Shown: positions 8,653 through 53,950 of the stretch, piece after piece | Numbering within the stretch: position 1 is the first letter of the stretch | How the letters are laid out: every line of letters starts with the position of its first letter | Source: Escherichia coli | Lineage (GTDB): Bacteria > Pseudomonadota > Gammaproteobacteria > Enterobacterales > Enterobacteriaceae | Assembly: GCF_051903065.1 (NCBI RefSeq) | Contig: NZ_CP178438.1 | DNA: 64,000 nt | Direction: 5' to 3' (one strand) | Made by a program: the position numbers and the translations under genes | Notes under the pieces: generated by a model | Told to the model about the DNA's origin: nothing | The model's input: only the letters and a program-made list of their open reading frames with translations | The model's database searches: none

Positions 8653-8667
8653 ATGGAGAGAAGCACA

Positions 8668-10800: not shown

Positions 10801-10811
10801 CCAGGAACAAC

Positions 10812-11009: not shown

Positions 11010-11038
11010 GTCTTACTCACCAGACTTCATTCCACTGA

Positions 11039-11066
11039 CGCCAGCCTGAACAGGGCTGGCGTTTTC
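11039..11066 (+). terminator. Rho-independent terminator
   Basis: CGCCAGCC-TGAACAG-GGCTGGCG stem-loop followed by TTTTC. Confidence 0.65.
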
Positions 11067-11093
11067 ATTTATCTGCAAAAAGGAATATCGATT

Positions 11094-11960: not shown

Positions 11961-12031
11961 AAGAGGTATTTTACAATTCGCGAATATTAACTATTATTAA
12001 TTGATAGTAATCAATCGGCGAGAAAATAACC

Positions 12032-12295
12032 ATGCCTACCAGTGTATCCCTCAGTCCTTACTTTGAAACGTTTATCCGCGAACAAATAGAAAGTGGTCGG
12101 TACAACAATACAAGTGAAGTCATTCGTGCCGGACTTCGTGCTCTGGAAGAACGGGAACAGCAGATAAAGCTTGAATCACTCCAGAGCGCCGTGGCCGCAG
12201 GCATCAACAGCGGTGAAAGTAAAAGTGCTGAAGAGGTATTCGGGCGACTGACGCACAAATACAAAAAGATGGCAGAAGGTGAACAGCCAATATGA
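12032..12295 (+). CDS. parD: ParD-family type II antitoxin (RHH)
   Basis: 87 aa; start overlaps ParE by ATGA; motif SEVIRAGLRALEEREQ typical of ParD/COG3609. Confidence 0.8.
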   Translation: MPTSVSLSPYFETFIREQIESGRYNNTSEVIRAGLRALEEREQQIKLESLQSAVAAGINSGESKSAEEVFGRLTHKYKKMAEGEQPI

Positions 12296-12618
12296 AACTG
12301 ACTGTTTCACCATTAGCAGAACACGATCTTGAAGCTATAGGTGACTGGATCGCTCAGGATAATCCTGTCCGTGCAATCAGTTTTACCGAAGAGCTTTACC
12401 AACAATGTCTGTTGATAGCCGAATCGCCAGTACTCTACAGAGAAAGACCCGAGTTAGGGGCTGGGATCAGAGGTTGTTCGTATGGTCGTTACCTTCTGCT
12501 GTTCAGGGTACTGGATACTGAAGTTCGTATCGAACGTATCGTTCATGGTTCCCGGGATATCAACAGGGTACTTGCAGAGCCAGACGACAAACCATCAGAT
12601 CATTTCTGGCAGCCATAA
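12292..12618 (+). CDS. parE: ParE/RelE-family type II toxin
   Basis: 108 aa; 4-bp overlap with the upstream antitoxin; RelE/ParE-like size and context. Confidence 0.8.
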   Translation: MKLTVSPLAEHDLEAIGDWIAQDNPVRAISFTEELYQQCLLIAESPVLYRERPELGAGIRGCSYGRYLLLFRVLDTEVRIERIVHGSRDINRVLAEPDDKPSDHFWQP

Positions 12619-12895
12619 ACAAAATCTGTGCGTTAACGCTCCCTAACACAGGTAGCCAGGTATTTTATAAATCTCTGTATTTTGTTGTCACTTCGATTCC
12701 GCGATTCAGCATATCGAACCAGACAAAATGATTACAACAAACCACAAGAAAGAGGGATTATAGCGTCAAAAGAATTCGAATTGCACATGGGGGCCTCATT
12801 GGTGGCCTCAAAAAGAACAAGGATAAAACAGTCGATACAAAACAATTGGTTATATAACCAGTTTCATTCCGAGTCCGGGCACCACTATTCATAAG

Positions 12896-12920
12896 GCCTC
12901 GCTGCAAAGCGGGGCTTTTT
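12896..12920 (+). terminator. Rho-independent terminator
   Basis: GCCTCGC-TGCAAA-GCGGGGC hairpin (one G-U pair) followed by TTTTT. Confidence 0.5.
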
Positions 12921-13244
12921 CACTTTCTGGCTACGGTAGATTTCTGGCCATTGCAAAGCATTATCTATTGGCTGGTTTTTTTCGCCTTTTCACGGATGTT
13001 CGTGACGTTTATACACCTCAGTACCCTCTGATATACCTTCTCTCTGCTGCCTGAAAACAAGAAATTCAATAGGTTAATAATTTATGCGTTTGTCCATCTA
13101 AAGGCGACAGTTGCCACAGTATCTAAACTGACTGATGCAAAGTCCCTCTACCCGGTAAGGTATCAGGACCATCAACGCAGACTTTTCGCAACAACCACTA
13201 CCAAAATACCGCGTAAATAACCTTCCAGAACAAGCATGACTTTT

Positions 13245-13928
13245 TTAACTCTCTTTTCCCCACCTGAGAAGCACCTCTTCCGCAATCCCCACAGGCAAAA
13301 ACTCCTGCTCCAGACGACCACGCGGTAAACGGGTTAAGTAGCGATAAAAATCGGCCTCCTCGTTAAGCAAGCCATCAGGTACAGCTTCCTTCGCTATGAC
13401 CGGTTCTGGAACGGCGCTATGACTGGCATACTGCTCAAACAACTCACGGTTCATGAGCAGGGCATCAAGCGTCGGACGACAACGCCTGGCTCTCGCCAGC
13501 ATCAGTAGTCCCCAGCTATCCATGTCCCCCCAATAGGCAACGCGTTTTTCATCCAGAACAGAACTGGATAGCCATTGCACGTCCAGGCCACAGCCTAAAA
13601 TCGCGATAGTGTCAGATAATGCTGGAAGATGATGCAAACACTGCTCATTTTCAACCACCAGCACTTGCGACGCGGGTAATGTTGTTTCCGCCAGTTCCGC
13701 CGTTGTTACCCGGCATTTTTTAAAAGGAAGCAAGCCGGGTGATAATGGTACAACTAAAACCCAGTGACTGGACTCATCAAAAGCATCAAGAAAAGTTGTT
13801 AATCCCTGCTCGCTGGCTTCTCCTGAAAATCGCACGTCCAACTGACCATAGTGTTGTTCCACAAACGTAATTTCGGCAACCGTCCACTGTGCCCAGTGAT
13901 TACGGTAATGCTGCGTTTTATCCACCAT
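13245..13928 (-). CDS. Toprim-like (Topo VI-A/Spo11/JetD C-terminal-type) domain protein, standalone
   Basis: 227 aa; motifs VLVVENEQCLHHL and YWGDMDSWGLLML resemble the Toprim glutamate and DxD signatures of DUF2220/JetD; family assignment from recall only. Confidence 0.5.
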   Translation of the reverse strand: MVDKTQHYRNHWAQWTVAEITFVEQHYGQLDVRFSGEASEQGLTTFLDAFDESSHWVLVVPLSPGLLPFKKCRVTTAELAETTLPASQVLVVENEQCLHHLPALSDTIAILGCGLDVQWLSSSVLDEKRVAYWGDMDSWGLLMLARARRCRPTLDALLMNRELFEQYASHSAVPEPVIAKEAVPDGLLNEEADFYRYLTRLPRGRLEQEFLPVGIAEEVLLRWGKES

Positions 13929-13945
13929 GTCAGACCTCCCGGGTA

Positions 13946-15400
13946 TCAGTCTCGTTGTTTTTCCTGCGCCAGCGTAAAGATTTGAGCCCGGAGTTGTTGT
14001 TCAGCCTGCAGGACCGCCTGCTGACGCTGCAGTGAGACTTCAGGGAGCAACTTCAACTGCCGAAGCTGCTCTTCTACCGGTACGGTCTGCCGGAAGCTTG
14101 TCAGCATGCCAAAGACCTGCGATTTAAGCTCACTGACGGTAATGTATTTTCCTCTCTGACCATCAAGCGCATTCAGTTTATGGGCAAGTGCCTGAAGCTG
14201 TGTCATTCCTTCATGCCAGCCATTCATTGTATCGACAGGAAGTACTGAGACATTAACCTGTTGCTGCCACTGCTGTGTCAGAGGCTTAGCCTGCTCCGGC
14301 CACAACGACTGAGCTTGTTCTGTAAGTTTTCTGGCATAAGTGATATTCCAGTCAGGAGGTGATTTATCCAGTCGGGCCAGCTGCTGCTGTGTCTGTGCAA
14401 TAAGATCCTGCGGTAACGGAGTCTGCTGACGCAACATCCGCAGCTGTTCAGACGTGAGAGGTGCAGGGAACGGAGCCAGTGAAGCAGCTAGCTGATTCTG
14501 TAGAGGGTCTGGCCGGTGAATAAAATGCCAGCTCCACACTGAAACTATGCTTATCACCAACATGGTACACATCCCGGCGGCAAAGGATTTCCACTTTTTA
14601 ACCGGAACAGGCATTGTCGACAGCACTTCCACATTCGGCTGCGACTGCGGTTCCCGTTGAGCAACGTAAACCCACTGTACTGCACTCCCTGGCGTATCTT
14701 CATTCGGTCCACCAGAAAAGTCTCTCGTGGATGCTATCGCATCATTTGTCACGGTGGCAGGCAACCCGATACCAGGCTGAATGCTCGAGCCGGTACTGGT
14801 TATGCCATTGCTGTTTTCCAGCCGGGCAGCACTATTGTGCATCAGGATACGCAATGTATCGAGTTGGCTGAGATGTTTTAGCTCCAGGCGCTGTAGTACC
14901 TCTCCAAGGCCTGTAAGCAGTTGCTCCACCCGGTACAGCTGGTTGATGTCGCTGTAATTTAACGGGAGCGATCGCATTCGTTGCTGCAGGCGCTGACTCA
15001 GGCTGCTGAGGATTTCCATGCGGGCATGAACTGGATGCGGCCACAGAGTCCCCCACTGATGGCTTATCAGTGCCTCGAGTATCGCCAGCCCTTCATTGAG
15101 CCCGAATAAGCCAGCCAGCTGCGTACGCGCAAGCGTATACCAGGCTGCCGTTTGCAACTCCACGCCGTTCTGCTCAAACAGTGAGAGACAAAGTTTTTCG
15201 ACATACTGCCAGCTCACATCCGGGCGAGCCGGATGTGTTAGCTTACTCAGTTCATCACGCAGGGCGGCATAATCCGGTAGCATGCGCGGGTCGCCGCCGG
15301 TTTTTAATTTACGCTTGGGGATATCATTCATGGTCAGTTGTCCATTAGACGTACCAGGGGCTATTAAAGGGTATTGTTTATGCGGCTTCACTTTCTGCAT
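13946..15400 (-). CDS. ImpA_N-domain, membrane-anchored type VI secretion accessory protein (VasL/TagA-like)
   Basis: N-terminal GGDPRMLPDYAALRDEL...DVSWQYVEKL...LQTAAWYTLAR...GLNEGLAILEALISHQWGTLWP matches the ImpA_N signature; one predicted transmembrane helix (FAAGMCTMLVISIVSVWSW); start may be the internal ATG at 15331. Confidence 0.7.
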   Translation of the reverse strand: MQKVKPHKQYPLIAPGTSNGQLTMNDIPKRKLKTGGDPRMLPDYAALRDELSKLTHPARPDVSWQYVEKLCLSLFEQNGVELQTAAWYTLARTQLAGLFGLNEGLAILEALISHQWGTLWPHPVHARMEILSSLSQRLQQRMRSLPLNYSDINQLYRVEQLLTGLGEVLQRLELKHLSQLDTLRILMHNSAARLENSNGITSTGSSIQPGIGLPATVTNDAIASTRDFSGGPNEDTPGSAVQWVYVAQREPQSQPNVEVLSTMPVPVKKWKSFAAGMCTMLVISIVSVWSWHFIHRPDPLQNQLAASLAPFPAPLTSEQLRMLRQQTPLPQDLIAQTQQQLARLDKSPPDWNITYARKLTEQAQSLWPEQAKPLTQQWQQQVNVSVLPVDTMNGWHEGMTQLQALAHKLNALDGQRGKYITVSELKSQVFGMLTSFRQTVPVEEQLRQLKLLPEVSLQRQQAVLQAEQQLRAQIFTLAQEKQRD

Positions 15401-15995
15401 ATTCGAGACTCTGCAGATACTTTAGCGCCAGCGGGTCAGCAATATATTCAACCTGCCCGTGGTGACGCTCCACCTCATCGATTATCCGGCTGAGTTCACC
15501 CCGGAAAAACTTCTTATGCAGGTTGATTCGGTTAATCCGGTAGCTTTCCAGAGGGTCATGTAGTGTCTTTTCAAGCGCAGGAGCGTCATCGCTGGAAATC
15601 ATGGCGTGTGCGTCAAAATCAAACAGCACGGCTGCCCCGCTCAGTTCTTTCACGCGCTCCATAGGCTCCAGCCGTCGGGCCATGCCGATTTTGAAGACGT
15701 TTTCACCGAAGGAGCCGATATTAGAAATTACATACACATGTCCCTGCTTCGTGAACTGGGCCATAGATTTGGCGCGTTCATACTGCTGATGAACGTCCTG
15801 TATTTTCCGCTCCAGCTCCAGACGCTGTCTTTCCAGTTCATCCCTGTGAGCACCTTCTACGGCGAGCAGGGCTTCTTCCAGGAATACCGGTACACATTTT
15901 ACCGACCGGTCGTCGATACGAAGAACGAGTGCGCCAATATCAAATACTCCCCACTCAACCAGCAGGTCCGTAACGGATGTACTGATCAGTGTCAA
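15378..15995 (-). CDS. T5orf172 (GIY-YIG-like) domain protein with N-terminal coiled coil
   Basis: GHVYVISN...FKIGMARRLEPMERVKEL...LEKTLHDPL...INLHKKFFRGEL matches the T5orf172/Mug113 pattern; overlaps tssE by 41 bp and the VasL ORF by 23 bp, so the start is uncertain. Confidence 0.55.
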   Translation of the reverse strand: MTLISTSVTDLLVEWGVFDIGALVLRIDDRSVKCVPVFLEEALLAVEGAHRDELERQRLELERKIQDVHQQYERAKSMAQFTKQGHVYVISNIGSFGENVFKIGMARRLEPMERVKELSGAAVLFDFDAHAMISSDDAPALEKTLHDPLESYRINRINLHKKFFRGELSRIIDEVERHHGQVEYIADPLALKYLQSLEYAESEAA

Positions 15996-16425
15996 GATAC
16001 TGCTGTTGCTTCAGGTGTCTCAGCATCACTCGTCCCTCGGGCATAAACTCGGTGCCGTAACGCACGAGGCCAATCCCCTTAAGCTCAGCATCAATGGCAT
16101 AACGAAGCTCGCCGGGGACGCTCTGCTCCAGCAGGATGACAGTAATTTTTTTCAGGCGCGGTTCGTATTTGAGCAGGACGGCAGACAATGTGCCCATCAG
16201 CTCATGGGCCGTTCCCGGCATGCCCTGGAGAACTCTGGTCATATCCGGCAGGCCATAGTCCGGCAGATGCGCCAGCGTGCCGGCACGGCAGTTGAGGATA
16301 CGCTGCATATTGTCGAGTACGGACAAAATGACCTGGTTCTGCTCGCTGACCTGGTGCAGGTCGAGGCCGCCGGTGAAGTTGCCATAAAGAGTTTCATACA
16401 ATGAAGGACGGGATGACTCACTCAT
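15955..16425 (-). CDS. tssE: Type VI secretion baseplate subunit TssE (gp25-like)
   Basis: 156 aa; motifs SLYETL, LDNMQRILNCRAGTLAHLPDYGLPD, LKYEPRL typical of the TssE/GPW-gp25 family. Confidence 0.75.
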   Translation of the reverse strand: MSESSRPSLYETLYGNFTGGLDLHQVSEQNQVILSVLDNMQRILNCRAGTLAHLPDYGLPDMTRVLQGMPGTAHELMGTLSAVLLKYEPRLKKITVILLEQSVPGELRYAIDAELKGIGLVRYGTEFMPEGRVMLRHLKQQQYLDTDQYIRYGPAG

Positions 16426-16960
16426 CTTTCAGCGCCTTCAGGGTCAGGCGGTTGTTACCGGCCTCAATCACCCGGGCTTTATCCGGATCAAGGTCATCAC
16501 GGCTCAGCACCACCCGCCAGGTGTTGTTCACCTGGTCTGGCGACATAAACATGCCAGCCACTGCGACATACTGCGCATTTTCATCCATCGGCATATCCAC
16601 CATCACCGCCCCACCCGGCTGCAGGCGGATGTCTTTCTCAGCTACCAGGTCTGCTTTAATGGCCTGACTGTCCGCCCTGAACAGTGACGGGTAGTCCGTC
16701 GTGTCAAAGGTTTTGCGGTCTTTAAGCTGGTAAATACGCACCACCGTCGACAATGCCACGCCGCCTGCATTGCTGTTCACTGCCTCACGGGCCCGAATAT
16801 CCAGATGCAGAGTTTTTATCTGCTTATAAAAAATCGATTTGGTCACAGCAACGGTGCCGTCTGTCACTTTTTGCGTCAGCCCACAGCCCGCCAGCATCAA
16901 GGTGATACCCGCGGCCAGCGCAGCCAGAGGAAATTTACCAGCGGTAATCGCCATCTTCAT
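16418..16960 (-). CDS. tssJ: Type VI secretion lipoprotein TssJ (SciN/VasD-like)
   Basis: Start MKMAITAG with lipobox LAGC; VVRIYQLKD...LQPGG...AVAGMF pattern of the TssJ family; ATG at 16960 checked on the sequence. Confidence 0.75.
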   Translation of the reverse strand: MKMAITAGKFPLAALAAGITLMLAGCGLTQKVTDGTVAVTKSIFYKQIKTLHLDIRAREAVNSNAGGVALSTVVRIYQLKDRKTFDTTDYPSLFRADSQAIKADLVAEKDIRLQPGGAVMVDMPMDENAQYVAVAGMFMSPDQVNNTWRVVLSRDDLDPDKARVIEAGNNRLTLKALKDE

Positions 16961-17580
16961 CGGTCTCCCTGCGGTGAATATTTTCCTGTACCCGCTCATA
17001 GCGGCCCAGATTAATGGTGATTGTTTTTGGGTGTGATGCGGTCCTGGCCGCATTCAGCGGTCGCATCACGGCAGTGCGGCCCAGTTGCACCGCCCCTGCG
17101 TTGGGTTTACTGCTCATGGTCGCGTCAGGAAGCAGACTGCGATCGACACACAGCTGTAGCCGCACATCCAGGCGAGACCCAAGATACACGTGCAGGAGCG
17201 CCATCAGGTCCGCGTGAAGCTCCCCGCCCGATAACCAGCCCTGCACTTCTGCCGGGTCAGTGGTGGTCAGGCGCATCAGCACCTGGCTGTTCACGTCGGC
17301 GGCATAGTTGCCCATCACCGGTCGGTTTGTCAGGGTGACGGGCTGGCTAACGCTCATGGTCAATGGCTTCTTCAGCGGCACACGGCGTTTGTCGTGGTGC
17401 CAGATTTTCGCCTGCGTGTTGGGTGCCAGCAGGCGCACCAGCGAGGCCATGCCTTCTGCGGTACGCCCCGGCAGTAACATGACCGGCAGCAGTGCCAGAA
17501 AGCGCGAAGCCGGGGTCGCGATACTGTCCGTGCAGCCGTTAATCCCGAGCCCGGCCAGTCCCAGCAGGTACTGCGAGGTT
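16935..17580 (-). pseudogene. C-terminal fragment of a type VI secretion-associated gene, truncated by IS1
   Basis: The reading frame runs without a native start into the IS1 end at 17581; identity (TssG or other) not resolved. Confidence 0.5.
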
Positions 17581-17595
17581 GGTAATGACTCCAAC

Positions 17596-18099
17596 TTATT
17601 GATAGTGTTTTATGTTCAGATAATGCCCGATGACTTTGTCATGCAGCTCCACCGATTTTGAGAACGACAGCGACTTCCGTCCCAGCCGTGCCAGGTGCTG
17701 CCTCAGATTCAGGTTATGCCGCTCAATTCGCTGCGTATATCGCTTGCTGATTACGTGCAGCTTTCCCTTCAGGCGGGATTCATACAGCGGCCAGCCATCC
17801 GTCATCCATATCACCACGTCAAAGGGTGACAGCAGGCTCATAAGACGCCCCAGCGTCGCCATAGTGCGTTCACCGAATACGTGCGCAACAACCGTCTTCC
17901 GGAGCCTGTCATACGCGTAAAACAGCCAGCGCTGGCGCGATTTAGCCCCGACATAGCCCCACTGTTCGTCCATTTCCGCGCAGACGATGACGTCACTGCC
18001 CGGCTGTATGCGCGAGGTTACCGACTGCGGCCTGAGTTTTTTAAGTGACGTAAAATCGTGTTGAGGCCAACGCCCATAATGCGGGCTGTTGCCCGGCAT
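17596..18099 (-). CDS. insB: IS1 InsB
   Basis: 167 aa matching recalled IS1 InsB. Confidence 0.9.
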
Positions 18100-18293
18100 C
18101 CAACGCCATTCATGGCCATATCAATGATTTTCTGGTGCGTACCGGGTTGAGAAGCGGTGTAAGTGAACTGCAGTTGCCATGTTTTACGGCAGTGAGAGCA
18201 GAGATAGCGCTGATGTCCGGCGGTGCTTTTGCCGTTACGCACCACCCCGTCAGTAGCTGAACAGGAGGGACAGCTGATAGAAACAGAAGCCAC
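18018..18293 (-). CDS. insA: IS1 InsA
   Basis: 91 aa [43 protein letters not shown]... matches IS1 InsA. Confidence 0.9.
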
Positions 18294-18457
18294 TGGAGCA
18301 CCTCAAAAACACCATCATACACTAAATCAGTAAGTTGGCAGCATCACCAACGGAGACTATGTATTAAGAAGCCAATCGTAAAAACGGTTCCCTGGCGAGA
18401 TAAACGACAAACAAATGGAAAGCCGGATGATATTTACCTTCATCCGGCATTATTGAC

Positions 18458-27904: not shown

Positions 27905-29047
27905 TTAAATCTGCTTTTCATACAATCGGTAACGCTTGTACGGCTCCGCCCCAATGCGTTCCAGCATGTTATTCATGCCTGTATTGGTTTCGAGGATCCA
28001 TGACATCTCCAGCGCATCGATCTTCCGGCGGGCAAACGGATCGCGTAAGGCTTCAATCAATAACAGCGCAATCACCGGGCCGATGCGGCTGAACTGATAC
28101 TCGTCGCGCACGCCCATCAGCGGTACTCTCGCAGTTCGCACACCGCTGACTTTCAAACGCCACAGCAATTTTGCCCAGCCGAAGGGAAAGAGCGATCCGT
28201 TCAGATCGGCAATCGCCTCGTTGATGTTCGGCAAGCCGACAATAAACGCGCAGGGTGCAGAATCAATCTCAGCGATGTAGATCATATCGTCCGGCACCAG
28301 ATATTTAAGTTGGTCGCCCATGGTCGCGAATTCATGTTCGGTAAACGGCACAAATCCCCAGTTGTGCTGCCAGCCAGAGTTGAAAATCTCACGCAGGATC
28401 TGCATCTCTTCGGCAAACCGCTGACGATTGATGCAGCGAATGGTCACCTTTTTGCGCACCTGATCCATCAGTTTTTTTAGCGCCGGAGAGAAAGTGAGAT
28501 CGGTTCGCTGCATCCACCACGCCAGTAAATCAATGCCTTTGTGATAACCCAGTTGTTCAATATGCGCGGCATACCACGGTTTGCCGTGTGGCATCATCGC
28601 ACAGGGTGGTGTATCGAAACCTTCAATCAGTAATCCGCTTTCCTGATTGATATTCAGGCTGAAAGGACCGCTGATCTTACTTGCACCTTGTGACTTCAAC
28701 CACGCTTCCGCTGCGCCAAACAACGCGGCAAAAACCTGCGGATCATCAATGGCGTCAATCATGCCGAAATGACCGGTATCTTCGCCGTAACGCTCGCGGT
28801 GTAAGGTATCGATTTGCGCGGTAATACGCCCAACTATCTGCCCGGCTATTTTTGCCACCCACGCCTGCCAGATGATATGGTCCGTCCCCGGATTTTTCAC
28901 AGACAAATGCTCGTTGCGTTCAATGAATAAAGGGGGTATCCAGTTTGGATCGTCGGGATAAAGTGATGACGGAAAAGCGATAAATGCCTTAAGGTCATTT
29001 TTATTAGTTACTTTTTCAATTTGAATCATTAGCAGATCGCATTCCAT
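27905..29047 (-). CDS. yghO: YghO, predicted acyl-CoA N-acyltransferase fold (candidate ceramide-synthase-like enzyme)
   Basis: 380 aa intact ORF matching recalled YghO; acyltransferase fold is recalled annotation, not verified here. Confidence 0.75.
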   Translation of the reverse strand: MECDLLMIQIEKVTNKNDLKAFIAFPSSLYPDDPNWIPPLFIERNEHLSVKNPGTDHIIWQAWVAKIAGQIVGRITAQIDTLHRERYGEDTGHFGMIDAIDDPQVFAALFGAAEAWLKSQGASKISGPFSLNINQESGLLIEGFDTPPCAMMPHGKPWYAAHIEQLGYHKGIDLLAWWMQRTDLTFSPALKKLMDQVRKKVTIRCINRQRFAEEMQILREIFNSGWQHNWGFVPFTEHEFATMGDQLKYLVPDDMIYIAEIDSAPCAFIVGLPNINEAIADLNGSLFPFGWAKLLWRLKVSGVRTARVPLMGVRDEYQFSRIGPVIALLLIEALRDPFARRKIDALEMSWILETNTGMNNMLERIGAEPYKRYRLYEKQI

Positions 29048-29418
29048 AGTTCTGTAGATAACAAAAAATTAACGGTGACAAACAGGTTGCAACAGCAACG
29101 AACGGCATCTTAATAATCAACCCAATGAATACAAACGACGAATAAATAGTATTTATTAATGATTACGATAAGGTCAGAGACTACACAGAAGCGCCACAAT
29201 GCCTTTTGTCGATTTAAGGCGACCGGACAAGGCTTCTTCTTAATATATTCATAAATTAAATATCATTCACAATAAAAACAAAAAAACTCAAACTCATTAT
29301 TTAAATCAATGTTCATTTTCACACTGATGAAAATACTATCTCATTTATCTTTTATGCCTATATAATCCACCGCATTATTGTCATTTTATTTTGGATATCC
29401 AATTTTTTCGTGGTGTAT

Positions 29419-31140
29419 ATGTCTAATAAAATCTTTACGCATTCCCTACCTATGCGCTATGCCGATTTTCCAACGCTGGTTGATGCTTTGGACTACGCCG
29501 CTCTGAGTAGCGCTGGAATGAATTTTTATGACAGACGTTGCCAACTTGAAGATCAACTGGAATATCAGACGTTAAAAGCGCGTGCCGAAGCTGGTGCGAA
29601 GCGGTTGTTATCGCTAAACCTGAAAAAAGGCGATCGCGTGGCGCTGATTGCCGAAACCAGTAGCGGGTTCGTAGAGGCTTTTTTTTCCTGCCAGTATGCC
29701 GGCTTAGTCGCCGTCCCGTTGGCGATTCCAATGGGCGTCGGTCAGCGGGATTCCTGGAGCGCCAAACTGCAGGGTTTACTGGCAAGTTGCCAGCCCGCTG
29801 CCATTATCACTGGTGATGAGTGGTTGCCGCTGGTCAATGCCGCCACGCATAACAACCCCGAATTGCATGTATTAAGCCACACCTGGTTTAAGGCATTACC
29901 GGAAGCCGATGTTGCGCTCCAGCGTCCAGTTCCGAACGATATCGCCTACCTCCAGTACACCTCCGGCAGCACCCGTTTTCCCCGTGGCGTCATTATCACC
30001 CATCGCGAAGTGATGGCTAATCTACGTGCTATAAGCCACGACGGCATTAAATTACGCCCTGGCGACCGCTGCGTCTCCTGGCTGCCTTTCTACCATGATA
30101 TGGGACTGGTCGGCTTTCTCCTGACCCCCGTCGCCACGCAGCTTTCAGTAGATTATTTGCGCACTCAGGATTTTGCCATGCGTCCTCTGCAATGGCTTAA
30201 ATTGATCAGTAAAAATCGCGGCACCGTTTCCGTTGCGCCGCCGTTTGGCTATGAATTGTGCCAGCGCCGCGTGAATGAAAAAGATCTCGCTGAACTGGAT
30301 CTTTCCTGCTGGCGCGTCGCTGGTATTGGTGCAGAACCCATCTCCACAGAACAACTCCATCAATTCGCTGAATGTTTCCGTCAGGTTAACTTTGACAATA
30401 AAACTTTCATGCCGTGCTACGGACTGGCAGAAAATGCGCTGGCTGTCAGCTTCTCTGATGAAGCCTCCGGGGTTGTGGTTAACGAAGTGGATCGCGACAT
30501 CCTCGAATATCAGGGTAAAGCCGTCGCGCCGGGTGCAGAGACACGCGCCGTATCGACTTTCGTCAACTGCGGCAAAGCGTTGCCGGAACATGGTATTGAA
30601 ATCCGCAATGAAGCAGGTATGCCGGTCGCGGAACGTGTGGTAGGCCATATTTGCATCTCCGGTCCCAGTCTGATGAGCGGTTACTTTGGCGACCAGGCTT
30701 CGCAAGACGAGATTGCCGCGACGGGCTGGTTAGACACTGGCGACCTCGGATATCTGCTGGACGGTTATCTGTATGTCACCGGACGCATTAAAGATCTGAT
30801 TATTATTCGTGGCCGTAATATCTGGCCGCAGGATATTGAATATATAGCGGAACAGGAACCGGAAATTCATTCTGGCGATGCGATTGCTTTTGTTACCGCC
30901 CAGGAAAAAATCATTTTGCAGATCCAGTGTCGGATCAGCGATGAAGAACGTCGCGGGCAGCTTATCCACGCGCTGGCGGCACGGATCCAAAGCGAATTTG
31001 GCGTGACCGCGGCTATCGATCTGTTGCCGCCCCACAGTATTCCCCGAACGTCCTCCGGCAAGCCTGCCCGTGCGGAAGCGAAAAAACGTTATCAGAAGGC
31101 TTATGCTGCAAGCCTTCATGTGCAGGAATCCCTGGCATGA
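29419..31140 (+). CDS. Fatty acyl-AMP ligase / acyl-ACP synthetase (adenylate-forming enzyme)
   Basis: AMP-binding motifs YTSGSTRFPRGV and TGDLGY; ORF track begins at GTG 29410, first ATG at 29419. Confidence 0.85.
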   Translation: MSNKIFTHSLPMRYADFPTLVDALDYAALSSAGMNFYDRRCQLEDQLEYQTLKARAEAGAKRLLSLNLKKGDRVALIAETSSGFVEAFFSCQYAGLVAVPLAIPMGVGQRDSWSAKLQGLLASCQPAAIITGDEWLPLVNAATHNNPELHVLSHTWFKALPEADVALQRPVPNDIAYLQYTSGSTRFPRGVIITHREVMANLRAISHDGIKLRPGDRCVSWLPFYHDMGLVGFLLTPVATQLSVDYLRTQDFAMRPLQWLKLISKNRGTVSVAPPFGYELCQRRVNEKDLAELDLSCWRVAGIGAEPISTEQLHQFAECFRQVNFDNKTFMPCYGLAENALAVSFSDEASGVVVNEVDRDILEYQGKAVAPGAETRAVSTFVNCGKALPEHGIEIRNEAGMPVAERVVGHICISGPSLMSGYFGDQASQDEIAATGWLDTGDLGYLLDGYLYVTGRIKDLIIIRGRNIWPQDIEYIAEQEPEIHSGDAIAFVTAQEKIILQIQCRISDEERRGQLIHALAARIQSEFGVTAAIDLLPPHSIPRTSSGKPARAEAKKRYQKAYAASLHVQESLA

Positions 31141-32051
31141 ATCAAACTGTCGCGGTGACGGGCGCTACCGGTTTTATCGGTAAATATATTATCGATAACC
31201 TGCTCGCCCGCGGCTTTCACGTTCGCGCATTGACGCGTACTGCCCGCGCTCACGTCAATGATAATCTCACCTGGGTGCGCGGTTCGCTGGAAGATACTCA
31301 TTCACTTAGCGAACTGGTTGCCGGAGCCAGTGCGGTGGTCCATTGCGCCGGGCAAGTGCGCGGACACAAAGAGGATGTCTTTACTCGCTGTAACGTTGAC
31401 GGTAGCCTGCGCTTGATGCAGGCGGCAAAAGAGAGCGGCTTTTGCCAACGTTTTCTATTTATCTCTTCGCTGGCGGCGCGCCATCCCGAGCTCTCCTGGT
31501 ATGCAAAATCCAAACATGTCGCCGAACAACGACTGGCAGCAATGGCGGACGCAATTACGCTGGGCGTTTTTCGCCCAACGGCAGTCTATGGCCCCGGCGA
31601 TAAAGAGTTAAAACCACTGTTTGACTGGATGCTGCGCGGCCTGCTGCCACGGCTGGGCGCACCAGATACACAGCTCTCTTTCCTGCACGTCACCGATTTC
31701 GCACAAGCCGTGGGTCAGTGGTTAAGCGCCGACTCCGTACAGACGCAAACGTATGAATTATGTGATGGTGTCGTCGGTGGCTATGACTGGCAGCGCATAC
31801 AACAACTGGCCGCCGCCGCCCGCCAGGGAGCTGTACGGATGGTCGGCGTTCCTCTGCCGTTGCTCACCTGCCTTGCGGATATCAGTACCGCGTTGAGTCG
31901 CCTGGCAGGTAAAGAACCTATGCTGACCCGCTCGAAAATTCGTGAATTAACCCACGCCGACTGGTCGGCAAGTAATAACCGTATTTCTGAAGATATTAAT
32001 TGGTTTCCCGGGATTAGCCTGGAACACGCATTACGCAACGGGCTATTTTGA
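31137..32051 (+). CDS. Extended SDR (NAD-dependent epimerase/dehydratase family) reductase
   Basis: Rossmann GATGFIG at N-terminus and YAKSK (YxxxK) motif; start overlaps the upstream stop (ATGA). Confidence 0.85.
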   Translation: MNQTVAVTGATGFIGKYIIDNLLARGFHVRALTRTARAHVNDNLTWVRGSLEDTHSLSELVAGASAVVHCAGQVRGHKEDVFTRCNVDGSLRLMQAAKESGFCQRFLFISSLAARHPELSWYAKSKHVAEQRLAAMADAITLGVFRPTAVYGPGDKELKPLFDWMLRGLLPRLGAPDTQLSFLHVTDFAQAVGQWLSADSVQTQTYELCDGVVGGYDWQRIQQLAAAARQGAVRMVGVPLPLLTCLADISTALSRLAGKEPMLTRSKIRELTHADWSASNNRISEDINWFPGISLEHALRNGLF

Positions 32052-32082
32052 TTGTCTTGTTTAAAGGTGTGTTAACGTTTCT

Positions 32083-32331
32083 ATGGTAAATCGTGAAATA
32101 GTAATGGATTACATCCTTTCCTGTTTACAGGATTTGGTCGAAAACGGTGTGGAAATTAAGCCCGACAGCGATCTCGTCAACGATCTTGGCCTGGAGTCGA
32201 TCAAAGTGATGGATCTCTTAATGATGCTGGAAGACAGATTCGATATTTCCATTCCTATTAATATTCTGCTGGATGTCAAAACCCCTGCGCAATTAATGGA
32301 AACTCTACTTCCATGGCTGGAGAATAAATAA
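32083..32331 (+). CDS. Acyl carrier protein
   Basis: 82 aa; DLGLESIKVMDLLMMLED resembles the phosphopantetheine attachment region; AAGGTG upstream of ATG 32083. Confidence 0.7.
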   Translation: MVNREIVMDYILSCLQDLVENGVEIKPDSDLVNDLGLESIKVMDLLMMLEDRFDISIPINILLDVKTPAQLMETLLPWLENK

Positions 32332-33503
32332 TGGGGCTATACGATAAATATGCGCGCCTTGCTGGCGAGCGACTGCAATTTAGTGACAACGGGTTAACAC
32401 CGTTTGGCACCTGTATTGATGAAGTGTATTCCGCCACCGAAGGCCGGATCGGCAATAAAAAAGTGATTCTGGCCGGGACCAATAATTACCTCGGTTTAAC
32501 CTTTAATCATGATGCCATCGCCGAAGGTCAGGCAGCGTTAGCGACCCAAGGCACCGGCACCACCGGTTCTCGTATGGCAAACGGCAGTTATGCGCCGCAC
32601 CTGGCGTTAGAGAAAGAGATTGCCGAGTTTTTCAATCGCCCTACCGCTATCGTTTTTTCAACCGGTTATACCGCTAATTTAGGCGTCATCAGCGCACTTG
32701 CCGACCATAACGCCGTGGTGTTACTGGATGCCGACAGCCACGCCAGTATTTATGACGCCTGTTCTCTCGGTGGCGCGGAAATTATTCGTTTCCGCCATAA
32801 CGATGCTAAAGATCTGGAACGGCGCATGGTTCGCCTCGGTGAACGGGCGAAAGAGGCGATTATCATCGTTGAGGGCATCTACAGTATGCTCGGTGACGTT
32901 GCGCCACTGGCGGAAATTGTTGATATCAAACGTCGTCTCGGTGGTTATTTGATTGTCGATGAAGCGCATTCGTTTGGCGTGTTAGGCGCAACGGGGCGCG
33001 GACTGGCTGAAGCTGTAGGCGTTGAAGATGATGTGGATATTATCGTTGGCACCTTCAGTAAAAGTCTGGCCTCGATTGGCGGTTTTGCTGTCGGTTCGGA
33101 AGCGATGGAAGTGCTGCGCTACGGCAGCCGCCCGTATATTTTTACCGCCTCTCCTTCTCCGTCCTGCATTGCGACCGTGCGCTCGTCGTTAAGAACTATT
33201 GCCACACAACCAGAGCTGCGGCAAAAGCTGATGGATAATGCCAACCATCTGTATGACGGTCTGCAAAAACTGGGTTATGAGTTAAGTTCACATATTAGCC
33301 CGGTAGTGCCGGTAATAATCGGTTCGAAAGAGGACGGTTTACGCATCTGGCGCGAGCTTATTTCGCTGGGCGTTTATGTGAATCTTATCCTGCCACCTGC
33401 CGCGCCTGCAGGCATCACGCTGCTGCGCTGTAGCGTAAACGCTGCCCACAGTCGTGAGCAAATCGATGCCATCATTCAAGCGTTCGCTACTCTGAAGCAG
33501 TAA
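32331..33503 (+). CDS. PLP-dependent alpha-oxoamine synthase (serine palmitoyltransferase/BioF/Kbl family)
   Basis: 390 aa; PLP-lysine motif GTFSKSLASIGGF; start overlaps the ACP stop. Confidence 0.85.
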   Translation: MGLYDKYARLAGERLQFSDNGLTPFGTCIDEVYSATEGRIGNKKVILAGTNNYLGLTFNHDAIAEGQAALATQGTGTTGSRMANGSYAPHLALEKEIAEFFNRPTAIVFSTGYTANLGVISALADHNAVVLLDADSHASIYDACSLGGAEIIRFRHNDAKDLERRMVRLGERAKEAIIIVEGIYSMLGDVAPLAEIVDIKRRLGGYLIVDEAHSFGVLGATGRGLAEAVGVEDDVDIIVGTFSKSLASIGGFAVGSEAMEVLRYGSRPYIFTASPSPSCIATVRSSLRTIATQPELRQKLMDNANHLYDGLQKLGYELSSHISPVVPVIIGSKEDGLRIWRELISLGVYVNLILPPAAPAGITLLRCSVNAAHSREQIDAIIQAFATLKQ

Positions 33504-33537
33504 TGTGAGCCCGCTGTGGTGTTGCGCCACGGCGGGT

Positions 33538-34617
33538 TTAATGTTGTCTGTCATACCAATACACCAGGCTCAACGCCATCAACACAAACGCTACCGGTAA
33601 ACCGAGCGCGATAACAGGTGCGCTCAACGCAAATAGCAAACCCAGATTGACCATGATTTGATAGCTGATCCAGGTGAGTAAGCCAACGATGACGCCTACA
33701 GCGAGACGGCTACCCATCCCTGGCGAGCGCGGGGCGCTAAAGGTAAACGGCACAGCCAGCAAAATCATCGCCAGGGTCAGGATCGGTTGCCCCAGTTTTT
33801 CCCACAGTGCAAGGCGGTATTCGCTGCTGGGTTGCCCGGTTTCCTGCAAATAATGGATGTAATGATTAAGCTGACGGACAGAAAAAGTATTCCCCGGCAT
33901 CGATAGCTCTTCAAGATCCATACTGGTGAAGGCCGATTGCCAGGCAAGATTATCTGATGTTTCCAGCGTTTCTTTACCGTTAAGCCATTTTTTATGATTC
34001 ACACCATGCAGGATCCACATTTTGTCGTCTTTAATGGTGGCACTGCGTGCATAAATGTAGGATTCGAGCGAGAGATCGTCGCGATAATGAAATATCTCCA
34101 CGCCCACCGGCTGGCCCTGCTCGTTCAGCGATTTCACCGTTACAAATTCATTACCGCGCCTGGCCCAAAGCATATTGCCGGTAATATCATCGTCCTCCCC
34201 CAACGCAGTGGCGGTCGATTTGATTTGCAGCGCCTGTTGCTGCAATGGCGACGCTACCCACTCATCTATCGCGCCTAACGAAACAGTCCACAATATCCCG
34301 GCAACCAGCGCCACCAGTGCAATACGGAAGATAGAAAACCCCGTGCTGCGAATGGCGGTAAGCTCACTGTTTTTCGATAACTGCCCCAGGCCAACAATCC
34401 CTCCCAATAAGGCGATAAACGGCGAAAGTTCGACCAGTGTGCGCGGTAAGGTCATTAGCACCACCAGCACCGCCTGAGTCCAGCGATAACCGCCCGGGCT
34501 GACATCATCCAGTTCGTTAATCAGGTTGAAGGTGGTAAAAAGCGGCAGCAATAGCCCTGCGGCGGCGGCAAAACCGAGAAAGAGATGACGGATTAAATAG
34601 CGACTGAAAACATTCAT
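33538..34617 (-). CDS. LptG-like permease (YjgP/YjgQ family)
   Basis: Start MNVFSRYLIRHLFLGF; six-helix permease pattern; 4-bp overlap with the upstream LptF-like gene. Confidence 0.75.
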   Translation of the reverse strand: MNVFSRYLIRHLFLGFAAAAGLLLPLFTTFNLINELDDVSPGGYRWTQAVLVVLMTLPRTLVELSPFIALLGGIVGLGQLSKNSELTAIRSTGFSIFRIALVALVAGILWTVSLGAIDEWVASPLQQQALQIKSTATALGEDDDITGNMLWARRGNEFVTVKSLNEQGQPVGVEIFHYRDDLSLESYIYARSATIKDDKMWILHGVNHKKWLNGKETLETSDNLAWQSAFTSMDLEELSMPGNTFSVRQLNHYIHYLQETGQPSSEYRLALWEKLGQPILTLAMILLAVPFTFSAPRSPGMGSRLAVGVIVGLLTWISYQIMVNLGLLFALSAPVIALGLPVAFVLMALSLVYWYDRQH

Positions 34618-35684
34618 CGGGAAAATTTCTGCAGCAAAGAGAAGTCGCGTGCGACCAGCATCAGCAGGCCCATTAGCATGAGTCCGGGCACTAACCACAA
34701 ACCAGGAATGAGAGGAATCGCGCCGTTAGCCACCAGCGTACGGCAGACGTCGCCGCCATAAAAAATGACAACAAACAGCAACGTCAGTGGCAATAACGTT
34801 GAAAATCGCCCTTGCCGCGGTTTTACCCGACTTAATGAAATGGCCAGCAGCGCCATCAACAATGCGGTCAGGCCACGGCTTTGTCGCCATTGCAGTTCGG
34901 CATGATCGGCCGGAAAGACGGAGCGCGCCAGCTCCGTGACCGATTTTGCTTTGCGTTTGACGTTAGGGCTTTGATCCAGCGGATTCAGATGTAATTGCAG
35001 ATTACGGTAGATCTGTTCGTTGTCGTCACGCCCCTGATGATCGAGAAGATAGGCGGTGCCGTTGTGCAACATAACGGTCGGTTTCTCGGGAGATGGGTCA
35101 ACCACATCAACCGAACGGGCGCGGAAAATGCGGGTTCGATTGGCAGTAGAAGTATAAATCAGCGCGTCAGTCAGGCGATTATTATCCTGATCAACCGTCT
35201 GCGAAAGGATCATTCGTCCGTTATCGTTAGTGTTAAATTTCTTTGCCCGCAACTGGCGAACATCCAGCTCCGACTGCGACTGCTGCTCCAGTTGATAAAT
35301 CTGCGCATAAGCCCACGGACGACCATACATCGACAGAAGGGTGACAAAAATACTTAGCGGTATCGCCAGATAAAGAACGGCTTTGTACAAGCGTCCCGGA
35401 CTGCCCCCTGCCGCAGAGATAGCAGTAATTTCCGAGTCGGTATACATCTGCCCTAGCGTCACGCCAACTGACACATACAGTCCAACAGGTAACAACATCT
35501 CCAGTGCAATCAGCACCTTGTAGAAAACGATATCCAGCACAACATCAAGTGCTAATGTCCCATTTGCCGCTTCGGTCAGATAACGCTGTGCGGAGTAGCT
35601 GGCGAAAATAAAGATCAGAAAACCGACGATAATCAGCACCAGACGGCGCGTACCACGCATGATGTAGTGTTCAACCAGCTTCAT
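34614..35684 (-). CDS. LptF-like permease (YjgP/YjgQ family)
   Basis: 356 aa; MKLVEHYIMRGTRRLVLII; paired with the LptG-like gene. Confidence 0.75.
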   Translation of the reverse strand: MKLVEHYIMRGTRRLVLIIVGFLIFIFASYSAQRYLTEAANGTLALDVVLDIVFYKVLIALEMLLPVGLYVSVGVTLGQMYTDSEITAISAAGGSPGRLYKAVLYLAIPLSIFVTLLSMYGRPWAYAQIYQLEQQSQSELDVRQLRAKKFNTNDNGRMILSQTVDQDNNRLTDALIYTSTANRTRIFRARSVDVVDPSPEKPTVMLHNGTAYLLDHQGRDDNEQIYRNLQLHLNPLDQSPNVKRKAKSVTELARSVFPADHAELQWRQSRGLTALLMALLAISLSRVKPRQGRFSTLLPLTLLFVVIFYGGDVCRTLVANGAIPLIPGLWLVPGLMLMGLLMLVARDFSLLQKFSR

Positions 35685-35714
35685 CTCACTAACGCCCTCA
35701 ATCCTTTGAATTTT

Positions 35715-36278
35715 TTATTCATTGATCAGTTTCTGCGCCAGCGCAATGACATGATCTACCTCTTCCGGCGTCAGGCTGCCGTCCTTTGCCCACTGAATTT
35801 GCCCGGTTTTATTCAGCACCAGAATGGTTGAACTCTGCTCCGGCAAGCGCCAGGCAACGCGTCCCTGTCCATTGCCGTCAATAACGAATTGCGCCCACGG
35901 ATAGCGGCGTTTATTTTTTTCGATTTTGCCAACGACAAAATAGCCAGTACCAAAGATGGCATCATCAGTGTTCACAATGGTGGTGGGCTGAAAACGATCC
36001 TGTGGAAAGTTTGCCGCTTCAACCGCTTTAATTAACAGTGAGTTCTTTTTCTTCGCCGACTTACGCCCGGCGATATACTGGATAATGCGGACTTTTCCCG
36101 CCAATTGTGTGCTGTTCCACTTTTGGTAGTGAATTTCGTCGTCGCTATTCAGAAGCAGCTCGCCGCCTTCCTGAATATAAACAGGGGTAACCGTTTTGCC
36201 AGTGACGAAATTGTGTGCCTGCACACCCGGGGCTAAGAGCATGATAATCAGCGCAATAATCAAACGAGATGACATCAT
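35715..36278 (-). CDS. YtfJ-family periplasmic protein (paralog)
   Basis: 187 aa with signal peptide; clear similarity to recalled YtfJ (TTIVNTDDAI...YPW.QF..D.NG...WQL...VLDK.G..QWAKDG.LTPEEV). Confidence 0.75.
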   Translation of the reverse strand: MMSSRLIIALIIMLLAPGVQAHNFVTGKTVTPVYIQEGGELLLNSDDEIHYQKWNSTQLAGKVRIIQYIAGRKSAKKKNSLLIKAVEAANFPQDRFQPTTIVNTDDAIFGTGYFVVGKIEKNKRRYPWAQFVIDGNGQGRVAWRLPEQSSTILVLNKTGQIQWAKDGSLTPEEVDHVIALAQKLINE

Positions 36279-36286
36279 TGCTCCGG

Positions 36287-37111
36287 TTATAGCGGAAAAC
36301 GCGAAATCAGCAGCTCTAAGCGCTGGCGAATATCGCTATCCAGCGCCACCGGTGCATCATACGACTGGCGGTTTTCCATATCATCCGCCACCATGTCGTC
36401 GTGTTTATCCCCCATCAGGCCATTAATGGCGGCGAGGAAACGGGAAATCTGTAACGCCTCTTTATTTTCAGGATCAAGCGATCTTAAGGTGTCGTAATAA
36501 GAAACCTGCTGGCTGATGATTTTTCGCACATCATGAAATTCCCTGCCGGTTAGTCGCGGTTTGGCAATTATCTCTTTCAGGGCATGCATTTGCTTTTGCC
36601 GATAGGCAATAAAACCGCTTACGCTTTCTAACTGGCTATGGCGTAATGAATAGTTCACCAACGACCAGACCGGAGAGCTTAAATAAATCCGTAACAGGTT
36701 GCCGTAATACGACACAATATTTTTCTTACCGTTACGAAACCCGTCCTGAAAACGTCCCAGAAAAACGGTCGTTTTGCCGAATAAAAATCCGGCCTGATGC
36801 TTCTTTAAATACAGCCGTTGCGCAAAACGCAGGTGCTTGTAGCGCGCTCGCATGTATTTAAATTGTTTGCGCTCATCAGCAGTCAGCTCATCGCCTTTGG
36901 CTTGTTTGCGAACTAAACGCAGTAATTCCTGACGATTAACGCCATTGAGCCAGAATTGCAGGCATAACGCGTAATTATCATGAATGATTTCGGTGGTACA
37001 ACTTAGTGCAATAGTCGGCGGCAAACTAACCTGTGCATCAACGACATCATCTTCTTCAATCGCAACAAATAGACGCTCGCTCGCCTCAAGCGGGAAATAT
37101 TTTCTCATCAT
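36287..37111 (-). CDS. Hypothetical protein
   Basis: 274 aa ORF between the YtfJ-like gene and yghQ; no motif recognised. Confidence 0.55.
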   Translation of the reverse strand: MMRKYFPLEASERLFVAIEEDDVVDAQVSLPPTIALSCTTEIIHDNYALCLQFWLNGVNRQELLRLVRKQAKGDELTADERKQFKYMRARYKHLRFAQRLYLKKHQAGFLFGKTTVFLGRFQDGFRNGKKNIVSYYGNLLRIYLSSPVWSLVNYSLRHSQLESVSGFIAYRQKQMHALKEIIAKPRLTGREFHDVRKIISQQVSYYDTLRSLDPENKEALQISRFLAAINGLMGDKHDDMVADDMENRQSYDAPVALDSDIRQRLELLISRFPL

Positions 37112-38460
37112 CAGGATTTCTCTCCGGCTGCGTTATAAAGCAAGGAATGGCGCTGAAAAAATGCCTTTAAGGTTGGAATTAACGAGAGCGCCACGTCCAG
37201 ACATTGCCCACCGAAGTAAGCAAACGCTGCTCCCAGCACGCCAAACAGATGACAGAACATGAACAGCAATACGATGTAGCCGATTGAGGCGATGGTTTGC
37301 GCCACGAGAAAAGCGCGCTGTTTTCCCGCCATCAATAGCAATGACTCCTGAGGGAAGCCCAGCATCGAGATCACAATTGCGCCCAGCATCACCTGAATCA
37401 GGTCATACGCTTCGAGATACTTAACGCCAAACACCAGCGAAATGAGCGGCTTGCCGACGATCAACACCGCGAGCGCCACCAGAATACCGATTCCGCCCGC
37501 CAGTAAACCGGACTTCACGCCTAACAACCACGGTCTGGTGGTGCGCGGATCTAAACGCATCACCTCTGGGTAAAAACTTTTACCCAGTAAACCCGCTGGC
37601 GTTCCGGCGGCGTCGAAGAATGTCATGGCGATTTTAAATAACCCGGCGGCAGCGGGTCCTAACACGATCCCCACCAACACTGTGCTGCACGAGTTACGTG
37701 CCGACCAGATGGAGTGGGCAATGTTGGTCGACCAGACAAAACTCCACGCGCCTTTAATGTGTCGGGCAGACTCAAACAGATTCAATTTGAAGGCGTTATG
37801 GATATTTCTGCGGCGTAATTCGCGCGCGGCAAACCACCAGTACATGGTGCCGCCAACCAGATTCGACACGTACCAGGCAATAACAAAACCCGCAAAACCA
37901 AAGTCAAAATACCAGGCTACGACGCTCCCCGCTGCGCGCAGAAAAGGTTTCGTCGCCTGCTGTACAGCAATCAAATCAAAGCGATCTACCGCACGCAGAA
38001 TGCCGGTCGGCGTGGAGGAAGCCATTGAAGGAATGAGCGTGCAATACAGCGCCGCCAGCCAAAAGCTTTGGTCATCCAGACCTAATGAATGGGAAAGGAA
38101 TGGCAGTAAGGCAATGCCGCCGACAATCGCCACCGCGCCGCTGACGATATCCAGCGAGAAGGAAAATGAGACGACATTGCGAAATTGCTGCGGATTATTG
38201 TTGGTTAATGCTGGTGTTCCGTACTGAACCACCAGCTGCCATGTCTGAAACTTAATAAAATCGCTGATCGACTTGGCGTACGATTGCACAATCACCAGTA
38301 CGCCAAACATGGCGGGCGTCATCCCTTTACCGGCACACGAGAGCGCCAACAGCCCCAGCAAAGCGCTCACGACATTACTGGAGCCTAACCAGGCGCTATT
38401 GCGAATAATGGTGCGAAACGCGCCATCTGCAAACCAATGTTTGATGTTAAAACCCGCCAA
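37111..38460 (-). CDS. yghQ: YghQ, MOP/Wzx-like polysaccharide/lipid flippase family membrane protein
   Basis: 449 aa polytopic membrane protein; synteny with yghRST. Confidence 0.75.
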   Translation of the reverse strand: MAGFNIKHWFADGAFRTIIRNSAWLGSSNVVSALLGLLALSCAGKGMTPAMFGVLVIVQSYAKSISDFIKFQTWQLVVQYGTPALTNNNPQQFRNVVSFSFSLDIVSGAVAIVGGIALLPFLSHSLGLDDQSFWLAALYCTLIPSMASSTPTGILRAVDRFDLIAVQQATKPFLRAAGSVVAWYFDFGFAGFVIAWYVSNLVGGTMYWWFAARELRRRNIHNAFKLNLFESARHIKGAWSFVWSTNIAHSIWSARNSCSTVLVGIVLGPAAAGLFKIAMTFFDAAGTPAGLLGKSFYPEVMRLDPRTTRPWLLGVKSGLLAGGIGILVALAVLIVGKPLISLVFGVKYLEAYDLIQVMLGAIVISMLGFPQESLLLMAGKQRAFLVAQTIASIGYIVLLFMFCHLFGVLGAAFAYFGGQCLDVALSLIPTLKAFFQRHSLLYNAAGEKS

Positions 38461-52906: not shown

Positions 52907-53794
52907 TCAGGAGAGATATTTATCGAACCATTTCAGTGTCCTTTGCCAGGCAAGATCGGCGGCAGATTTGTCATAACGGGGCGTGGAATCATTATGGAAT
53001 CCGTGATTAACCCCCGGATAGATATACGCCTCATAAACCTTATTATTGGCTTTCAACGCCGCCTCGTAAGCAGGCCAGCCCTCGTTGATTCGGGTGTCCA
53101 GTTCCGCGAAGTGGAGTAGTAAAGGCGCTTCAATCTTCGCCACATCGGCAGTGGGTGCCTGACGACCATAAAACGGCACCGCGCAGGCCAGTTCCGGATA
53201 CGCGACAGCCGCCGCGTTCGATACGCCACCGCCATAGCAAAATCCGGTAATACCCACTTTGCCTGTCGCTTGCGGATAGCGTTGCATAAACTCAATTGCG
53301 GCAAAAAAATCATTCATCAGTTTGGTTGGATCAACCTGCTGTTGCAGCTCACGACCTTTATCATCATTTCCCGGATAACCTCCAACGGAACTTAAGCCGT
53401 CAGGTGCCAGGGCGATATACCCCGCCTTCGCCACTCGCCGTGCCACATCTTCGATATACGGATTCAGTCCACGATTCTCATGCACCACCACCACGGCTGG
53501 CGTTTTGCCGCTCATCCTTGCGGGTTTCACCAGATAACCCCGTACCTCGCCGTGACCATTTGGCGAAGGATACGTGATGTACTCAGCAACAATCTCCGGG
53601 TCGGTAAACTCTACCTGAGTCGCCAGCGCATAATTTGGCTTGAGCAAATCAAACAACGCTAATGCCGTCATCCCGCCTACCGCATACTTCGCCGCAAGGT
53701 TGAGGAACTCACGTTTCGAGATTTTCCCGTGAGCGTAATAGTCGTAGTAATCCAGCAACTCTTGTGGGAAATCTTTGGCGGTTAAACGCGGCAT
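52907..53794 (-). CDS. yghX: Dienelactone hydrolase family protein (intact yghX)
   Basis: Start MPRLTAKDFPQELLDYYDYY; continuous reading frame; ORF track extends to 53839. Confidence 0.75.
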   Translation of the reverse strand: MPRLTAKDFPQELLDYYDYYAHGKISKREFLNLAAKYAVGGMTALALFDLLKPNYALATQVEFTDPEIVAEYITYPSPNGHGEVRGYLVKPARMSGKTPAVVVVHENRGLNPYIEDVARRVAKAGYIALAPDGLSSVGGYPGNDDKGRELQQQVDPTKLMNDFFAAIEFMQRYPQATGKVGITGFCYGGGVSNAAAVAYPELACAVPFYGRQAPTADVAKIEAPLLLHFAELDTRINEGWPAYEAALKANNKVYEAYIYPGVNHGFHNDSTPRYDKSAADLAWQRTLKWFDKYLS

Positions 53795-53950
53795 CGTTGC
53801 ACTCCTCAGTTGGTGTTTTTTTAAGCAAAGCATAAGCACGTGTTTTTGCCCAGTTTTTCGTCACTCTGTGAGCCAGACTACGGGATACGCGCTGGCGAAT
53901 CGCTAAACTAGAAACATTGTTTCGAAATTGAACGGTGGAAAGGAGAGGTC

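Follow-up and report, generated by a model that had tools for sequence, protein, structure and literature searches.

The locus examined here raises two questions, whether this strain of Escherichia coli has kept a whole gene where K-12 has a broken one and, if so, which of the two states is the original. The window, meaning the complete stretch of DNA that was analysed, comprises 64,000 nucleotides of one strand of contig NZ_CP178438.1 (assembly GCF_051903065.1). A preliminary description made from these letters had pointed to an intact dienelactone hydrolase gene at 52907-53839, at a place where K-12 was thought to carry a pseudogene, and had suggested that the strain may retain the functional enzyme. 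Our own reading, to which we would give a probability of about 0.9, is that positions 52907-53794 (minus strand) hold the intact and ancestral yghX, coding for a cysteine hydrolase of 295 amino acids from the dienelactone hydrolase (DLH) family, and that the K-12 allele is the derived one, inactivated in two steps.

The coordinates first proposed for the gene coincide exactly with an open reading frame, which lies on the minus strand (no strand had been given), and the suggested length of about 296-310 amino acids fits both its 310 codons and the 295 residues of the supported product. The features that bear on identity and start are these.

52907..53839, minus strand: mechanical open reading frame that begins at a GTG and has 310 codons, as found in the ORF listing
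52907..53794, minus strand: yghX coding sequence, 295 codons plus stop, with ATG at 53794-53792 and TGA at 52909-52907
53795..53839, minus strand: upstream in-frame extension to the GTG, present only in the 310-codon frame
53802..53807, minus strand: Shine-Dalgarno sequence GAGGAG, 7 nt 5' of the ATG, read from the sequence
52913..53542, minus strand: DLH alpha/beta-hydrolase domain, residues 85-294 (PF01738)
53687..53794, minus strand: codons 1-36, Pfam 'YqhI-like' (PF23678, 75.9 bits), equal to the first 36 amino acids of K-12 YqhI

A chance open frame is discarded by two profile matches, one to the NCBIfam model NF041440, 'YghX family hydrolase' (586.5 bits, E=8e-177, cutoff 460), and one to the Pfam DLH family (163.9 bits, E=5.2e-48, cutoff 21). 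The first of them runs from residue 3 to residue 294 of the 295-residue YghX and covers the model completely (positions 1-292 of 292). A RefSeq gene with 100% identical DNA (strain ECNB21-M121) is an 888-bp yghX that starts at the same ATG, its product being named 'YghX family hydrolase' (WP_001625980.1), and the order of genes around the window yghX (hybO-yghW-yghX/gpr/yqhA) is syntenic with that of K-12. Taken together, the Shine-Dalgarno sequence, the RefSeq start, the coverage of NF041440 and the N-termini of the homologues, all 120 of the 120 close ones starting at the same Met with M-[PT]-R-L-T, support ATG 53794 as the true start and hence a predicted product of 295 amino acids. It is very improbable that the real product is a protein of 310 amino acids initiated at GTG 53839. 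The mechanical frame does extend to this codon, but no Shine-Dalgarno sequence precedes it (GAGGAG stands in front of the ATG instead), RefSeq gives 295 amino acids, the close homologues share the shorter N-terminus, NF041440 begins at residue 3 of the shorter form, and in K-12 the YqhI product of this locus was detected from the ATG. The GTG start was rejected on the ribosome binding site, the model coverage, the RefSeq start and the homologue N-termini. The 45 positions of the extension are probably an untranslated 5' leader.

A consensus scan for promoters and terminators between 52700 and 54000 returned no sites on the minus strand, and its total was no higher than in shuffled sequence. 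In the gap that separates the yghX stop codon from the start of yghW, at 52801-52826, there is a perfect 11-bp inverted repeat (TCGCTATATAT TACC ATATATAGCGA), in the loop of which two bases (52813 and 52814) differ from K-12. It is not an obvious yghX terminator, since no run of T follows it on the minus strand.

As to what kind of protein the frame encodes, the residues predicted to carry out catalysis were located by alignment with Pseudomonas ClcD (1DIN and variants; EC 3.1.1.45).

53237..53239, minus strand: Cys186 (TGC), predicted nucleophile within G-F-C-Y-G-G, aligned with ClcD C123, nearly invariant
53096..53098, minus strand: Asp233, predicted acid of the triad, aligned with ClcD D171, invariant among 40 homologues
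53003..53005, minus strand: His264, predicted base of the triad, aligned with ClcD H202, nearly invariant

In the 40 homologues, which go down to about 37% identity, the triad is invariant or nearly so; Cys186 sits in the G-x-C-x-G nucleophile elbow that characterizes the DLH family, and Glu106 of YghX aligns with ClcD E36. The AlphaFold2 (AF2) model of the window protein (pLDDT 95.8) has an alpha/beta-hydrolase fold that superposes in Foldseek on PDB entry 4ZV9 with an rmsd of 0.4 Å and on ClcD (1din) with a TMt of 0.83 and an rmsd of 2.4 Å. Entry 4ZV9, deposited as 'uncharacterized protein' and also called 'EcoDLH', is the YghX of E. coli O157:H7 Sakai, that is, the same gene at the same locus; it matches YghX residues 59-294 (E=5e-161, 99% identity), the crystallised construct lacking the N-terminal 58 residues that the full-length protein has. 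The EDL933 allele is separated from that of the window by three conservative substitutions (V69F, R93K, and S135N). ClcD shares with YghX the Pfam family, the fold, the Cys-Asp-His triad and the equivalent of Glu36, although identity between the two is only about 25%; furthermore, ClcD is cytoplasmic, has no N-terminal extension and belongs to a chlorocatechol operon, whereas YghX bears a signal-like N-terminus of 58 residues and has no aromatic-degradation neighbours. The next-closest solved structure, Klebsiella pneumoniae KpDLH (3F67; E=2e-23, 28% identity), has a similar elbow (G-F-C-W-G-G) but comes from another subfamily, outside NF041440.

Given the triad and the fold, YghX is most likely, by analogy with ClcD, an acyl-cysteine hydrolase acting on an ester, a lactone or a thioester. 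Like ClcD, it would form a covalent acyl-cysteine intermediate in cleaving its substrate, with the predicted triad Cys186-Asp233-His264 helped by Glu106. The term 'dienelactone hydrolase' has to be taken as a family label for YghX and not as a demonstrated activity. True dienelactone hydrolase (carboxymethylenebutenolidase, EC 3.1.1.45) activity, which is usually encoded in chlorocatechol or beta-ketoadipate clusters, is doubtful, because no chlorocatechol, dienelactone or other aromatic-catabolism genes are found nearby, the neighbours being hyb, yghW, gpr, and yqhA. A 2026 preprint detected no phosphotriesterase activity in purified EcoDLH (4ZV9), in contrast to the weak one of KpDLH (10.1101/2025.10.30.685675). 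The papers found on YghX name no substrate.

In MG1655 (NC_000913.3) the orthologous locus, with identical neighbours, is annotated as the pseudogene yghX (b4658) plus yqhI (b4755), a gene of 47 amino acids. Alignment of the window with MG1655 and with a second K-12-type genome reveals two lesions in K-12, a 2-bp deletion at codon 37 and a 1-bp deletion at codon 157, and both sites are intact here.

53684..53686, minus strand: Tyr codon 37 (TAT); K-12 is 2 bp short here (TA/AT), and by alignment the window is undamaged
53324..53326, minus strand: Thr codon 157 (ACC); K-12 is 1 bp short here, having lost a C from the CC, and by alignment the window is undamaged

The net change in K-12 is of −3 bases, so that the original frame is recovered after codon 157 and codons 38-157 are read out of frame. 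The pseudogene that had been proposed for K-12 is thus supported, both by the mapped deletions and by the annotation of b4658, and the same alignment, examined for a frame in K-12 as intact as that of the window, finds none, only the two frame-breaking deletions. The window gene falls outside the K-12-type pseudogene allele class. Of the proposed split into yghX and yghY, the broken state of the locus stands; the current record has the yghX pseudogene and yqhI. Our literature search returned no gene called yghY, only unrelated peptide strings, and a 2018 paper names the pieces yghX_2. Apart from the deletions, K-12 yghX has seven differences from the window, only one of them non-synonymous (K93R), and the upstream 156 bp of the window gene are one base apart from K-12.

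Translated in three frames, the K-12 gene gives from the yghX start codon only YghX residues 1-36, followed by CGRRDDGISVV and a stop. This 47-residue product is an exact match to the published sequence of YqhI, 36 residues of YghX plus an 11-residue out-of-frame tail (PMC6001520), and YqhI and the Pfam 'YqhI-like' family correspond to the N-terminal stub of YghX. The start is translated in K-12, as detected with a chromosomal SPA tag (PMC6001520), and by ribosome profiling the footprints on YqhI rise in K-12 under low Mg2+ (PMC11429745). The latter study, on small proteins, considers YqhI a protein in its own right, with yghX nowhere mentioned, and reports a phenotype for the yqhI deletion that YqhI failed to complement (PMC11429745). 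Where phenotypes and regulation have been ascribed to yqhI, they should be taken to describe a truncated yghX.

To see which state prevails in the species, alleles were counted in 5,426 complete E. coli genomes by exact matches to allele-specific 77-80-mers. The locus was found in 5,425 of them. At least 1,501 (27.7%) carry the K-12 2-bp deletion by these exact-match counts, made up of 1,247 genomes with the K-12 sequence and 254 with a nearby SNP, a variant that was verified in three genomes; about 72% are without this deletion. The K-12 1-bp deletion was matched exactly in 1,187 genomes (21.9%). We also took 40 evenly spaced genomes and read the yghX class in each. Intact-length genes appeared in 27, and the 13 disrupted ones comprised nine with the K-12 double lesion, two with only the first (2-bp) lesion, and two interrupted by IS1. 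Most E. coli carry the intact allele, and parsimony makes it the ancestral one. In this strain the frame is open, as had been suggested, but such intactness is common in E. coli and in no way peculiar to the strain.

Two genomes, TUM9803 and NT1N31, have the 2-bp deletion only, in an allele that is otherwise identical to that of K-12, which indicates that the pseudogene arose stepwise and that the 2-bp deletion came first. In the sequence of events that we propose, the deletion at codon 37 would have stopped translation after 47 amino acids, giving YqhI, and the deletion at codon 157 would have followed. The window strain has neither lesion, and about a quarter of the sequenced E. coli share the K-12-type inactivated allele. 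One could think of the K-12 pseudogene as an artefact of sequencing or of domestication in the laboratory, for which we found no supporting evidence. This is exceedingly improbable, as over 1,100 genomes sequenced independently share the same two deletions, the carriers are not laboratory strains alone (some came from patients, pigs, cattle, and wastewater), and the intermediate alleles carry just the first deletion.

Other disruptions involve IS1, which in EM18-18-42 is inserted within yghX and in IAL7255 is associated with a rearrangement. These IS1 disruptions are independent of each other and were seen in natural isolates (NZ_CP063473.1 and NZ_CM130730.1). In IAL7255 the leftover 3' fragment of yghX is joined to the mdtM/yjiN region, a position that points to an IS1-mediated rearrangement.

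An open frame is one thing and a gene under selection another. Pairwise Nei-Gojobori comparisons of eight alleles, seven of them intact and the eighth that of K-12 after repair, gave dN/dS values of 0.02-0.11 with dS up to 0.24, which indicates strong purifying selection on intact yghX. The window protein departs from the repaired K-12 protein and from the consensus only by K93R. We asked whether this change might impair the window allele and discarded the idea, position 93 being variable or gapped in homologues. Retention of a functional enzyme, as had been suggested for this strain, is a reasonable expectation from sequence comparison, the frame being intact, the triad kept, purifying selection evident and the protein 99% identical to one that has been purified and crystallised.

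At the same time, yghX is shown to be dispensable in many lineages by the 28% of genomes that are frameshifted and by the IS1 insertions. A sceptic may then argue that the frame is intact in the window but the gene is dispensable and drifting toward loss, so that an open frame would say little about a working enzyme. The numbers that speak for this are those already given, at least 1,501 of the 5,426 complete genomes with the 2-bp frameshift, 13 disrupted among the 40 evenly sampled ones, and the independent IS1 events in EM18-18-42 and IAL7255; besides, K-12 grows well without yghX, and the locus is a neutral integration site used by engineers. We nevertheless consider it improbable, since dN/dS among intact alleles is low even where dS reaches its maximum, homologues of about 37% identity still keep the triad and much the greater part of the core, and the single deviation of the window allele falls at a variable position.

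The part of the protein that is absent from the crystal, and most of which forms the K-12 stub, deserves separate attention.

53621..53794, minus strand: signal-like region, codons 1-58, with a conserved n-region, S-K-R-E-F-L, a moderately hydrophobic stretch, and A-L-A before T59

The segment covered by YqhI and PF23678 (53687-53794) takes in the signal-like n-region and the KR motif. The motif of YghX, S-K-R-E-F-L-N, resembles the Tat consensus S/T-R-R-x-F-L-K, with KR where RR is expected. In 41 of 53 distant full-length homologues there is an RR pair, followed by F-L, a hydrophobic stretch and A-x-A. YghX itself has the further elements expected of a Tat signal, namely a hydrophobic region, a basic residue in the c-region (K52) and A56-L57-A58 before T59, and its best 15-residue Kyte-Doolittle mean (1.55, vs. 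1.46 for the HybO Tat signal) is below usual transmembrane values. A natural Tat signal with KR has a precedent in TtrB (PMC1182353). The first 58 residues could therefore be pictured as a Tat-type export signal, with KR replacing RR and a cleavage site at A-L-A, that would deliver a mature enzyme to the periplasm. To export of YghX through Tat, as judged from these motifs, we give slightly less than even odds, and the mature protein is probably periplasmic.

The profile models do not file this N-terminus as a Tat signal, because neither PF10518 (TAT_signal) nor TIGR01409 finds YghX at any E value up to 10, whereas HybO, taken as control, is recognised with 29.2 bits. Two homologues that do have RR (P0169 and P0126) obtain only sub-threshold scores with the Tat models. 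The main rival is that residues 1-58 are a retained, structured extension, either a helical cap or a membrane-associated element, of a cytoplasmic or inner-membrane-associated enzyme. The lack of a Tat model match and the KR in place of RR both favour it, and so do two features of the region itself. AF2 builds residues 1-60 as three helices with a pLDDT of 88-94, atypical for a cleaved signal, and homologues with as little as about 40% identity still share the n-region FPQELLDxYDxYxHG, a degree of conservation far above that of ordinary signal peptides. On the other side, the architecture of the 41 distant homologues is that of Tat signals, the crystallised construct folds without residues 1-58, hydrophobicity is near that of HybO and under usual transmembrane values, and the basic K52 precedes A-L-A. 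We regard a retained extension as unlikely, and export by Tat as the better candidate. Combining the two sets of traits, a tentative and rather unlikely proposal is that YghX would be a Tat-exported periplasmic cysteine hydrolase with a natural Lys-Arg signal and a conserved structured n-region, overlooked in the lists of Tat substrates, and that YqhI would be the remnant of its signal. If this were true, the pseudogene state of K-12 would explain why the gene is missing from the canonical lists of Tat substrates in E. coli, and Mg2+ limitation would lead E. coli other than K-12 to produce the complete hydrolase.

Elsewhere in the window, two regions also differ from K-12. Between yghO and yghQ, at 29007-37391, there is a segment of 8.4 kb where K-12 has only an IS5 (insH9). 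Its open reading frames include a fatty acyl-AMP ligase, an NAD-dependent epimerase/reductase-like protein, a YtfJ-family protein, LptF- and LptG-like permeases, and an enzyme of the serine palmitoyltransferase type (BioF/Kbl family; NF047599, 599 bits). The presence of the segment here vs. the IS5 there suggests an IS5-associated deletion in K-12 of a cluster for lipid-type biosynthesis and export. Positions 1-18412 gave no megablast match to the K-12 region before glcA (yghJ/sslE, type II secretion genes, pheV side); open reading frames in this part match YagK/YfjJ, a GTPase, DUF4942, JetD_C, and the type VI secretion VasL/ImpA_N domains, and the region looks like a genomic island.

The intact yghX is not new as such. 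The intact gene already has its name in RefSeq, where alleles of the K-12 type are marked as frameshifted, a crystal structure of YghX is available, and the pseudogene of K-12 commonly serves as an integration site. The significance of the finding goes little beyond correct annotation, K-12 being an atypical reference at the yghX locus. Strains with an intact yghX, like the one from which the window comes, are the proper background in which to look for the substrate and the location of the enzyme.
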